Shown here: positions 36,374 to 37,150 of the stretch, piece by piece
Numbering within the stretch: the stretch's first letter is position 1
Layout: the number at the start of each line of letters is the position of its first letter
NCBI GenBank assembly: GCA_965222575.1
Contig: OZ244958.1
Span: forward strand, 216,072 to 280,071
From: Alphaproteobacteria bacterium
Lineage (GTDB): Bacteria; Pseudomonadota; Alphaproteobacteria; G965222575
Direction: 5' to 3'
Length of the DNA: 64,000 nucleotides
Notes under the pieces: generated by a model
Told to the model about the DNA's origin: nothing
What the model saw: the letters and a program-made list of their open reading frames with translations, nothing else
Database searches by the model: none
Made by a program: the position numbers and the translations under genes

Positions 36374-36439
36374 CACTCCCCTTTATTCATTGTTTCGTTC
36401 AGTATAAAACACACACACCCTTTGTCAAGCTCTACAACC

Positions 36440-37150
36440 CCCCTCCCTTCTTTTTTCCCATGCCGCAACCTCCTTGCCTTTAGGAGTAAGCCCCCCTTCT
36501 TTTTTTCTCATGCCGCAACCTCCTTGCCTTTAGGAGTAAGCCCCCCCTTCTTTTTTTCTCATGCCGCAACCTCCTTGCCTTTAGGAGTAAGCCCCCCCCT
36601 TCTTTTTTCCCATGCCGCAACCTCCTGCCTTTAGGAGTAAGCCCCCCCCTTCTTTTTTCTCATGCCGCAACCTCCTTGCCTTTAGGAGTAAGCCCCCCCT
36701 TCTTTTTTTCTCATGCCGCAACCTCCTTGCCTTTAGGAGTAAGCCCCCCCTTCTTTTTTTCTCATGCCGCAACCTCCTTGCCTTTAGGAGTAAGCCCCCC
36801 CTTCTTTTTTTCTCATGCCGCAACCTCCTTGCCTTTAGGAGTAAGCCCCCCCCTTCTTTTTTTCTCATGCCGCAACCTCCTTGCCTTTAGGAGTAAGCCC
36901 CCCCCTTCTTTTTTTCTCATGCCCCAACCTCCTCCCCTTTAGGAGTAATGCCCCCTCCCCTTCTGCCGCAACCTCCTTTTTCCCATGCCGCAACCTCCTC
37001 ACCTTTAGGAGCAAACCCCTCCCTTCTTTTTTCCCATGCCGCAACCTCCTCGCCTTTAGGAGTAAGCCCCCTCCCCTTCTTTTTTCCCATGCCGCAACCT
37101 CCTTGCCTTTAGGAGTAAGCCCCCTCCCCCTTTTTTCTCATGCCCCAACC
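36440..37150. repeat. about 12 tandem copies of a 57-62-bp minisatellite (catgccgcaacctccttgcctttaggagtaagccccccttcttttttt) with variable poly-C and poly-T lengths
   Basis: Repeats are visible directly in the sequence and degrade toward 37150. On the minus strand each unit reads aaGGAGGttgcggcATG (SD plus ATG). Lies upstream of rpmG. Confidence 0.9.

Follow-up and report, generated by a model that had tools for sequence, protein, structure and literature searches.

A tandem array of 51-bp units with repeated translation-start signals between ubiA and rpmG in an alphaproteobacterial genome

The 64,000-nt stretch analysed here, referred to below as the window, covers positions 216,072 to 280,071 of contig OZ244958.1 (assembly GCA_965222575.1) from an alphaproteobacterium. 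It carries a long tandem array in the spacer between ubiA and rpmG, and this array is the subject of the present analysis. According to NCBIfam assignments, the gene order is plsX, fabH, ubiA, array, rpmG, gshB (glutathione-synthase-like) and guaA, all on the minus strand. The genes plsX and fabH, fabH and ubiA, and gshB and guaA overlap by 4 nt, while gshB starts at the base directly after the rpmG stop codon. Given this tight packing on both sides, the array sits exactly at the seam of plsX-fabH-ubiA and rpmG-gshB-guaA. Feature coordinates are collected in Table 1.

The array and the origin of its unit

Tandem Repeats Finder (TRF) called the array at 36439-37169 with a period of 51 bp, 88-95% matches and scores of 908-1045, the highest among the tandem repeats of the window. 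Parsing unit by unit yielded 14 units which, from 37170 down to 36438, measure 51, 53, 51, 66, 52, 52, 51, 51, 51, 51, 50, 51, 50 and 53 nt; unit 4 owes its 66 bp to an internal 15-nt duplication, and the remaining units keep to 50-53 bp. The minus-strand consensus of the unit is CTTACTCCTAAAGGCAAGGAGGTTGCGGCATGAGAAAAAAAGAAGGGGGGG, and the gene strand of the array consists of 40% G, 33% A, 13% C and 14% T (73% purine). A 32-nt core, CATGCCGCAACCTCCTTGCCTTTAGGAGTAAG on the plus strand, has 10 matches with up to three mismatches, versus 0 expected from 100 shuffles. The TRF scores and these core matches bear out the long tandem array reported by a first-pass annotation of this DNA, which had described it as about 12 copies of a unit of about 60 bp, both figures being superseded by the measured period and the parsed units. 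The same annotation had the array filling the whole ubiA-rpmG spacer. The spacer is 775 bp long and the array takes 714 bp of it (36438-37151, 92%), reaching a further 19 bp inside ubiA, but the last 61 bp (36377-36437) are occupied by a near-consensus promoter and the rpmG ribosome-binding site.

Table 1. Features of the ubiA-rpmG region; positions are those of the window
Feature	Position	Strand	Basis or content
ubiA (4-hydroxybenzoate polyprenyltransferase)	37152..38009	minus	TIGR01474, E 1e-70
14-unit tandem array	36438..37170	minus	TRF period 51 and unit-by-unit parsing
Unit 1, most diverged	37120..37170	minus	first 19 nt are the ubiA end including TAG
Homogeneous core, units 6-13	36491..36897	minus	unit parsing
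ORF of 95 aa in the open reading frame (ORF) track	36581..36868	minus	read-through of units keeping the frame open
Representative mini-ORF	36784..36816	minus	ATG AGA AAA AAA GAA GGG GGG GCT TAC TCC TAA (MRKKEGGAYS*)
Predicted sigma-70 promoter of rpmG	36401..36428	minus	TTGACA-16 nt-TATACT, 11/12
rpmG (ribosomal protein L33)	36206..36376	minus	TIGR01023, E 4e-21

The length of homopolymers is the main difference among units, as the first-pass annotation had noted: the A run spans 5-7 nt and, in the core units, the G run spans 6-8 nt. In edge units the G run is broken by an A. Within the core, units 7, 8, 9 and 12 are identical; what sets the other core units apart is one or two indels in a homopolymer, a single A-to-G change, or the two combined. 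An older variant, ATGGGAAAAAAGAAGGGAGGGG, or further substitutions mark the edge units (1-5 and 14), with units 2, 3 and 14 having this variant in common. The array thus shows the anatomy of minisatellites and variable-number tandem repeats (VNTRs), with units of at least 10 bp lying head to tail at high identity, a non-coding location, a homogeneous core and diverged edges. Such a contrast between diverged edges and a homogenised centre is what slippage or unequal exchange usually leaves behind. In practice, a VNTR is defined by polymorphism in copy number.

The beginning of the array is also the end of ubiA, which reads TTA CTC CTA AAG ACA TAG (LLLKT and stop) within unit 1. UbiA homologues from 80 loci align to the C-terminus and end at most about 7 residues from it, one of them at the same position; unit 1 is therefore native coding sequence and not the edge of an inserted element. 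The ubiA 3' end recurs in the other units as CTTACTCCTAAAGGCAAGGAGG. Judging from this sequence correspondence, the unit is likely a copy of the ubiA 3' end together with about 32 nt of old spacer, with unit 1 as its likely source, and the array looks like the product of duplication in place rather than of insertion. The strong Shine-Dalgarno sequence of the other units occupies the position of the stop codon in unit 1, from which it differs by two substitutions (TAGAGG versus AGGAGG). Moreover, the frame in which the repeat stays open is that of ubiA (LLLKARRLRHEKKRRGG), and the TAG of unit 1 prevents UbiA from gaining a repeat tail, which accounts for unit 1 differing from the rest. The start of the mini-ORF resembles that of rpmG (ATG-AGA-AAA-AAG versus ATG-GCG-AAA-AAG), but the unit was rejected as a copied rpmG start, since the last unit is not continuous with rpmG and the 61-bp promoter segment lies between them. 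On either side of the founding unit, a candidate short direct repeat (CTTACTCCTAAAGG versus CTTGACAAAGGG on the rpmG side) was too weak to claim.

Translation starts, the rpmG promoter and the flanking genes

On the minus strand, 13 of the 14 units contain AGGAGG-TTG(C/G)GGC-ATG, in which AGGAGG is followed after 7 nt by ATG, and unit 1 has TAGAGG in place of AGGAGG. The ATG is thus present in 14 of 14 units, as the first-pass annotation had stated, whereas the Shine-Dalgarno sequence that it also placed in every unit is absent from unit 1. The duplex of the unit with the anti-Shine-Dalgarno sequence reaches -12.1 kcal/mol, a value equalled or beaten by only 2 of the 53 long-ORF starts in the window, whose median is -3.8; these energies assume the canonical anti-Shine-Dalgarno sequence, the window having no 16S gene.

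Each ATG opens a mini-ORF. In nine of the 14 units it is 10 codons long, mostly MRKKEGGAYS*, and its TAA lies 17-18 nt before the next ATG; in the representative listed in Table 1, AAGGAGG stands 7 nt ahead of the start and the stop comes 18 nt before the ATG of the next unit. The remaining mini-ORF lengths are 9, 15, 28, 35, 57 and 95 codons, the variation from 9 to 95 codons arising because 1-nt differences in the A or G run shift the frame. The first mini-ORF ATG comes 10 nt after the ubiA TAG, and the last mini-ORFs stop at 36432 and 36425, that is, 51-58 nt ahead of the rpmG ATG (36373), a distance that offers no coupling geometry.

The ORF of 95 aa had been called an artefact in the first pass, and we likewise regard it as an artefact, a by-product of the repeat. 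It has no NCBIfam match. Of the six frames in which a unit can be read, three are open, and this accounts for the nested ORFs of 46-132 aa on both strands. When the three open frames of the array were joined in one query against 5.8 billion proteins, no homologue was found, nor even a self match, so that the sensitivity of this search is uncertain.

A scan of 35900-37700 for promoters returned one site (36428-36401), separated by 9 bp from the last unit and followed after 25 nt by the rpmG ORF. Matches at 11 of 12 positions occur four times in the 64 kb on both strands, compared with 1.05 expected; all four are in non-coding DNA, and three stand just upstream of co-oriented ORF starts. This rarity and the non-coding placement make the prediction of the rpmG promoter credible. 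The rpmG transcript predicted from this site would start near 36394 and would not include the array. A different promoter reading was rejected: a sigma-54 site in each unit (AGGCAAG-GAGG-TTGCG) matches with 3 mismatches, which is at chance level (72 sites with up to 3 mismatches in the window versus 86 expected), and no sigma-54 site with fewer than 3 mismatches occurs anywhere in the window.

No intrinsic-terminator-like site was found in the array (36438-37170) or after ubiA. Folding of the 824-nt region was no better than that of shuffled sequences (z = 0.12 for the gene strand and -0.97 for the other strand), single and double units gave no signal either (z = 0.51, -0.11 and -0.87), and Rfam returned no match at the array with E up to 5. 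The only recurrent structure in the array is a 5-bp stem (CTCCT/AGGAG). G-rich, C-poor RNA is a poor substrate for Rho. The lack of a terminator after ubiA, together with the C-poor RNA, makes read-through from ubiA likely.

Leaders and attenuators lie in the 5' untranslated region (UTR), downstream of the operon promoter, and form a hairpin with a U-run or alternative structures. Here, the predicted promoter lies downstream of the array, and neither kind of structure was detected. The proposal of the first-pass annotation that the array acts as a ribosome-loading or attenuation element for rpmG-gshB is thus not supported, given the position of the predicted promoter, the lack of a terminator and of a folding signal, and the lack of coupling geometry.

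As for the genes themselves, rpmG, gshB, fabH, plsX and guaA were found near ubiA at none of 80 ubiA loci, with flanks of up to 6 kb on each side. The ubiA-rpmG adjacency is lineage-specific, and these loci therefore provide no orthologous spacer for comparison. The next-best FabH after the identical one is 55% identical, and the closest UbiA relatives, from Sphingomonadales, are 44% identical. These low identities and the 1,215,846-bp length of the source contig point to an orphan alphaproteobacterium with a small genome. Within the last codons of rpmG (36209-36228, minus strand), AAGGAGG lies 15 nt ahead of the GTG taken as the gshB start; this spacing is long for a ribosome-binding site, which makes it worth re-examining where gshB truly starts or how it is coupled to rpmG.

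Other copies and other repeats

No second copy of the array was found in the window, either with the 32-nt core at up to three mismatches or in searches to E 50. Dispersed REP-like copies of the unit, the outcome that the first-pass annotation itself had set against its proposal, were likewise not found within the window, which amounts to about 5% of the source contig. An exact pattern of the core with 25 specified bases had no match in 596 Gb of species-representative genomes, nor in JGI metagenomes or viral contigs, and blastn of the whole array against plasmid and phage collections gave no match; the collections searched evidently exclude the genome that carries the array, and these negatives say little on dispersal within it. 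The unit-derived sequence suited to searching other DNA is CATGCCNCAACCTCCTNNCCTTTAGGAG.

The surroundings are rich in repeats. With the TRF settings of PMC3287509, tandem repeats make up 14 loci and 4.7% of the length of the window, and the contents reported for other genomes are 6.3% in Ehrlichia ruminantium, 1.6% in Wolbachia wMel, 0.7% in Anaplasma marginale and 0.38% in E. coli (PMC3287509, Table 4). About 0.7% of the real 51-mers of the window would yield AGGAGG-N5-9-ATG if repeated in tandem. Extrapolated at the repeat density of the window, this corresponds to roughly two such arrays per 1.2 Mb by chance.

Two further duplications in the window include ORF starts. One is a 67-bp tandem duplication at 54677-54818 (2.1 copies, 97% identical) that takes in the 5' end, ATG and first 22 codons, of an AlgH-like gene (54113-54742, minus strand), the upstream copy being out of frame with an early stop. 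The other, an array at 51220-51535, covers the start of the ORF at 50487-51248. An ORF-poor stretch of 1.8 kb (51220-53040) contains a tandem repeat (periods 81 and 128) as well as a unit of about 60 bp (AGTATTGTACGAAAAAGGGGT..AACTTTCCCTTGATATTCAAGGGCATATGGCAT) that is dispersed in at least five copies, near 51.40, 51.53, 51.90, 52.33 and 52.97 kb, and this stretch may be a decayed mobile element or a pseudogene region.

A second large array (57101-57436, minus strand) repeats the 15-bp sequence TATAGGCAACCCGTC 22.5 times. It is bordered on one side by an 11/12 sigma-70 promoter (TTGACA-18-TATTAT, 57465-57436) and on the other by the ribosome-binding site and ATG of the ORF at 56341-57078, an orphan (MKKTFK...) with no Pfam match, and this placement would give a predicted 5' UTR of about 350 nt, nearly all of it repeat. 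Between 57468 and 57600, just downstream of gyrB (57635-60025, minus strand), the palindrome CCCCCTAGGGGG and its variants occur in several copies, each followed by T runs. These look like stacked bidirectional terminators, of which there are none after ubiA.

Homopolymer runs of at least 7 are 4-10 times commoner in the window than expected; outside the array there are 42 T runs versus 4 expected, 19 A runs versus 5, and 16 G plus C runs versus 3.5. Some of these runs lie within long ORFs (for example G9 at 5085, and C7 at 39958 in plsX). The excess suggests slippage-prone replication or a tolerance of slippage. Four consecutive orphan ORFs at 15541-19976 on the plus strand (447, 252, 401 and 347 aa) have no Pfam match, contain in-frame tandem repeats with periods of 15-105 nt and have a C- and A-rich coding strand; possibly, the bacterium is host-associated and these are repeat proteins that it secretes or displays on its surface. 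Finally, the plus-strand GC skew flips at about 50000, from about +0.2 (47-50 kb) to about -0.2 (50-64 kb). As the long ORFs are all on the minus strand on both sides of this position, the switch is no effect of gene orientation, and it may mark a replication terminus or origin; DnaA boxes in the window are at chance level (17 versus 13.5 expected).

Explanations for the array and comparison with known repeat systems

On balance, we consider that the array is probably a lineage-private, non-coding intergenic minisatellite, likely a VNTR, made and maintained by slippage and without a demonstrated role. The founding unit would have been a 51-bp segment made up of the last five codons and the stop of ubiA and about 32 nt of the following spacer, which replication slippage or unequal recombination would have raised to 14 copies, ongoing exchange keeping the central copies identical while the edge copies drifted. 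The founding spacer presumably already had GAGG, 7 nt and ATG, so that two substitutions in an early copy (TAGAGG to AGGAGG) could have made the strong Shine-Dalgarno sequence that amplification then copied 13 times. The promoter that lies between the array and rpmG would drive rpmG transcription. Read-through transcripts of ubiA probably extend across the array, with ribosomes probably initiating at its mini-ORFs; such initiation may render the insertion harmless, as a by-product of the unit rather than a regulator. The selfish minisatellite suggested in the first pass survives in part, as a minisatellite but one apparently formed by in-place duplication of the ubiA 3' end, with no mobile element involved. 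Several observations sit less easily with an array free of function. The Shine-Dalgarno sequence is unusually strong for this genome, on a par with the best 2 of the 53 gene starts. Neither it nor the ATG varies among units 2-14, a constancy for which selection could also account. In unit 10, compensating indels (A6 and G8 versus A7 and G7) preserve both the length of the unit and the frame of the mini-ORF. By a count from the unit listing, the stretch from Shine-Dalgarno to ATG holds about one of about eight variable positions, too few to separate constraint from homogenisation.

Another reading is that the array is a spacer that translates itself. In such a spacer, each unit would supply a mini-cistron, and ribosomes would restart along the 730-nt spacer of the ubiA read-through transcript, preventing polarity and linking plsX-fabH-ubiA to rpmG-gshB-guaA, with the translation signals selected at least for tolerance. 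We judge this unlikely. The regular AGGAGG-7 nt-ATG motif in 13 of 14 units, the nine mini-ORFs of 10 codons, the beginning of the chain 10 nt past the ubiA stop, a Shine-Dalgarno energy far from the gene median (-12.1 versus -3.8 kcal/mol), a start site free of stable hairpins and the lack of a terminator after ubiA all agree with it. There is also the precedent of mycobacterial interspersed repetitive units (MIRUs), whose ORFs are coupled to flanking genes and which are inserted with little effect on expression (PMC12548453; PMC3184786). However, rpmG has a near-consensus promoter downstream of the array, and the gap between the last mini-ORF stop and the rpmG ATG (51-58 nt) is unsuited to coupling. 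In addition, five of the 14 mini-ORFs extend for 15-95 codons over the start sites that follow, the G-rich, C-poor RNA, as a poor Rho substrate, may need no protection from polarity, and chance alone, at this repeat density, should produce the motif about once or twice per genome. A bolder version, in which a self-translating minisatellite convergent with MIRUs switches mini-ORF length by homopolymer slippage and thereby tunes the ribosomes reaching rpmG-gshB-guaA, seems to us decidedly unlikely. If the mini-cistrons are translated, repeat expansions in transcription units would be shown to pass a filter favouring units at which translation restarts; MIRUs are so far the only case for which such a rule has been suggested.

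The array could instead act as DNA, modulating the rpmG promoter as a copy-number-dependent upstream element that tunes rpmG-gshB-guaA through slippage, whether as a bent or stiff purine-rich tract, as a series of protein-binding sites, or as an insulator against ubiA transcription and supercoiling. Control of promoters by repeat number is known in other bacteria, the array comes within 9 bp of the -35 hexamer, its A5-7 and G6-8 tracts recur at a regular spacing of 51 bp around an invariant 32-bp core, and the array of 22.5 15-bp units at 57101-57436 also stands beside an 11/12 promoter. Nevertheless, we hold this to be very unlikely, considering that the array lies wholly upstream, where copy number leaves the -35/-10 spacing unchanged, and that no dyad symmetry exists beyond the 5-bp stem. 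Two specific forms can be set aside: an UP element would be A/T-rich, whereas the region between -36 and -56 is rich in G, and 51 bp equal 4.86 helical turns, which puts the A-tracts out of phase for planar bending. More doubtful still is the landing and later amplification of a dispersed selfish element, of the REP (repetitive extragenic palindromic), MITE (miniature inverted-repeat transposable element) or MIRU type, with more copies elsewhere in the 1.2-Mb genome. The dispersed repeat of about 60 bp (51.3-53.0 kb) and the CCCCCTAGGGGG palindromes show that such elements exist in this genome, and only 5% of the contig was inspected. On the other side stand the lack of any other copy in the 64 kb with E up to 50, the lack of matches in the 596 Gb of genomes and in the metagenome, viral, plasmid and phage collections, the identity of unit 1 with native ubiA coding sequence, and the lack of terminal inverted repeats or a stable stem-loop. 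Least credible is that the array attenuates or terminates transcription between ubiA and rpmG, or encodes a genuine repeat protein, even though it lies between two operons and has three of six frames open, with ORFs of 88-132 aa. The array has no hairpin with a U-run, folds like shuffled sequence and lacks an Rfam match, and its ORFs are broken by 1-nt indels, overlap one another on both strands, and belong to no family and have no homologue.

If the minisatellite interpretation holds, the value of the array is modest, as a strain-typing marker for an orphan alphaproteobacterium with a small genome. It also illustrates cleanly how translation signals can be multiplied, and spurious ORFs created in annotation, by tandem duplication at the end of a gene. 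The main curiosity is the strength and regularity of the amplified translation starts.

Among known systems, several can be separated from the array by structure. REP elements, bacterial interspersed mosaic elements (BIMEs) and MITEs have stable stem-loops or terminal inverted repeats and many copies, whereas the array has a 5-bp stem and one locus in the window. Like the promoter repeats of contingency loci, the array is a slippage-prone repeat beside a promoter, with long G and A homopolymers in each unit. The tracts of contingency loci usually have units of 1-7 nt, are placed between -35 and -10, over a regulator site or within an ORF, and control surface or virulence genes. In contrast, the array has 51-bp units, all of them located upstream of the -35, and the operon that follows is a housekeeping one for a ribosomal protein. 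Phase-variable promoter repeats would not be positioned in this way either, as 9 bp separate the end of the array from the -35 downstream and, in the spacer, the array begins after the ubiA stop. Being outside both the promoter spacing and the flanking ORFs, the array can gain or lose units and leave both intact.

MIRUs are intergenic units of 40-100 bp, often in tandem, which lie between co-oriented genes and contain short ORFs oriented like the genes on either side; they are thought to be tolerated since translation continues through them (PMC3184786; PMC12548453). The array similarly has a tandem intergenic unit of 51 bp between the co-oriented ubiA and rpmG, with a mini-ORF in each unit. 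However, the ORF of a MIRU shares bases with the stop codon of one neighbour and the start codon of the other (-4 spacing, PMC12548453), whereas the array leaves gaps of 10 nt and 51-58 nt with a promoter in between. MIRUs occupy about 40-50 loci and look mobile, whereas the array is at one locus within the 64-kb window with a first unit of native gene sequence, and its host belongs to a different phylum. MIRUs can thus be regarded as the closest functional analogy, the array itself being, by this comparison, no member of the MIRU family.

The VNTR-105 and VNTR-141 of Wolbachia and the many tandem repeats of Ehrlichia ruminantium, with units measuring tens to hundreds of bp in small genomes of intracellular alphaproteobacteria, have been attributed to slipped-strand mispairing in repeat-rich genomes of about 1.2-1.5 Mb (PMC3287509). 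The array resembles them in its head-to-tail, non-coding intergenic units with near-identical periods and small internal indels, and its setting resembles theirs as well, with 4.7% tandem repeats in the window and a source contig of 1.22 Mb. It differs in having no sequence relationship to them, in its period (51 bp versus 105-141 bp or a mean of 139 bp), in lacking the 9-bp-stem hairpins of the Wolbachia units and in the strong translation start of each unit. By anatomy, intergenic VNTRs appear to be its closest counterparts; we class the array with them, and its status as a VNTR is likely.

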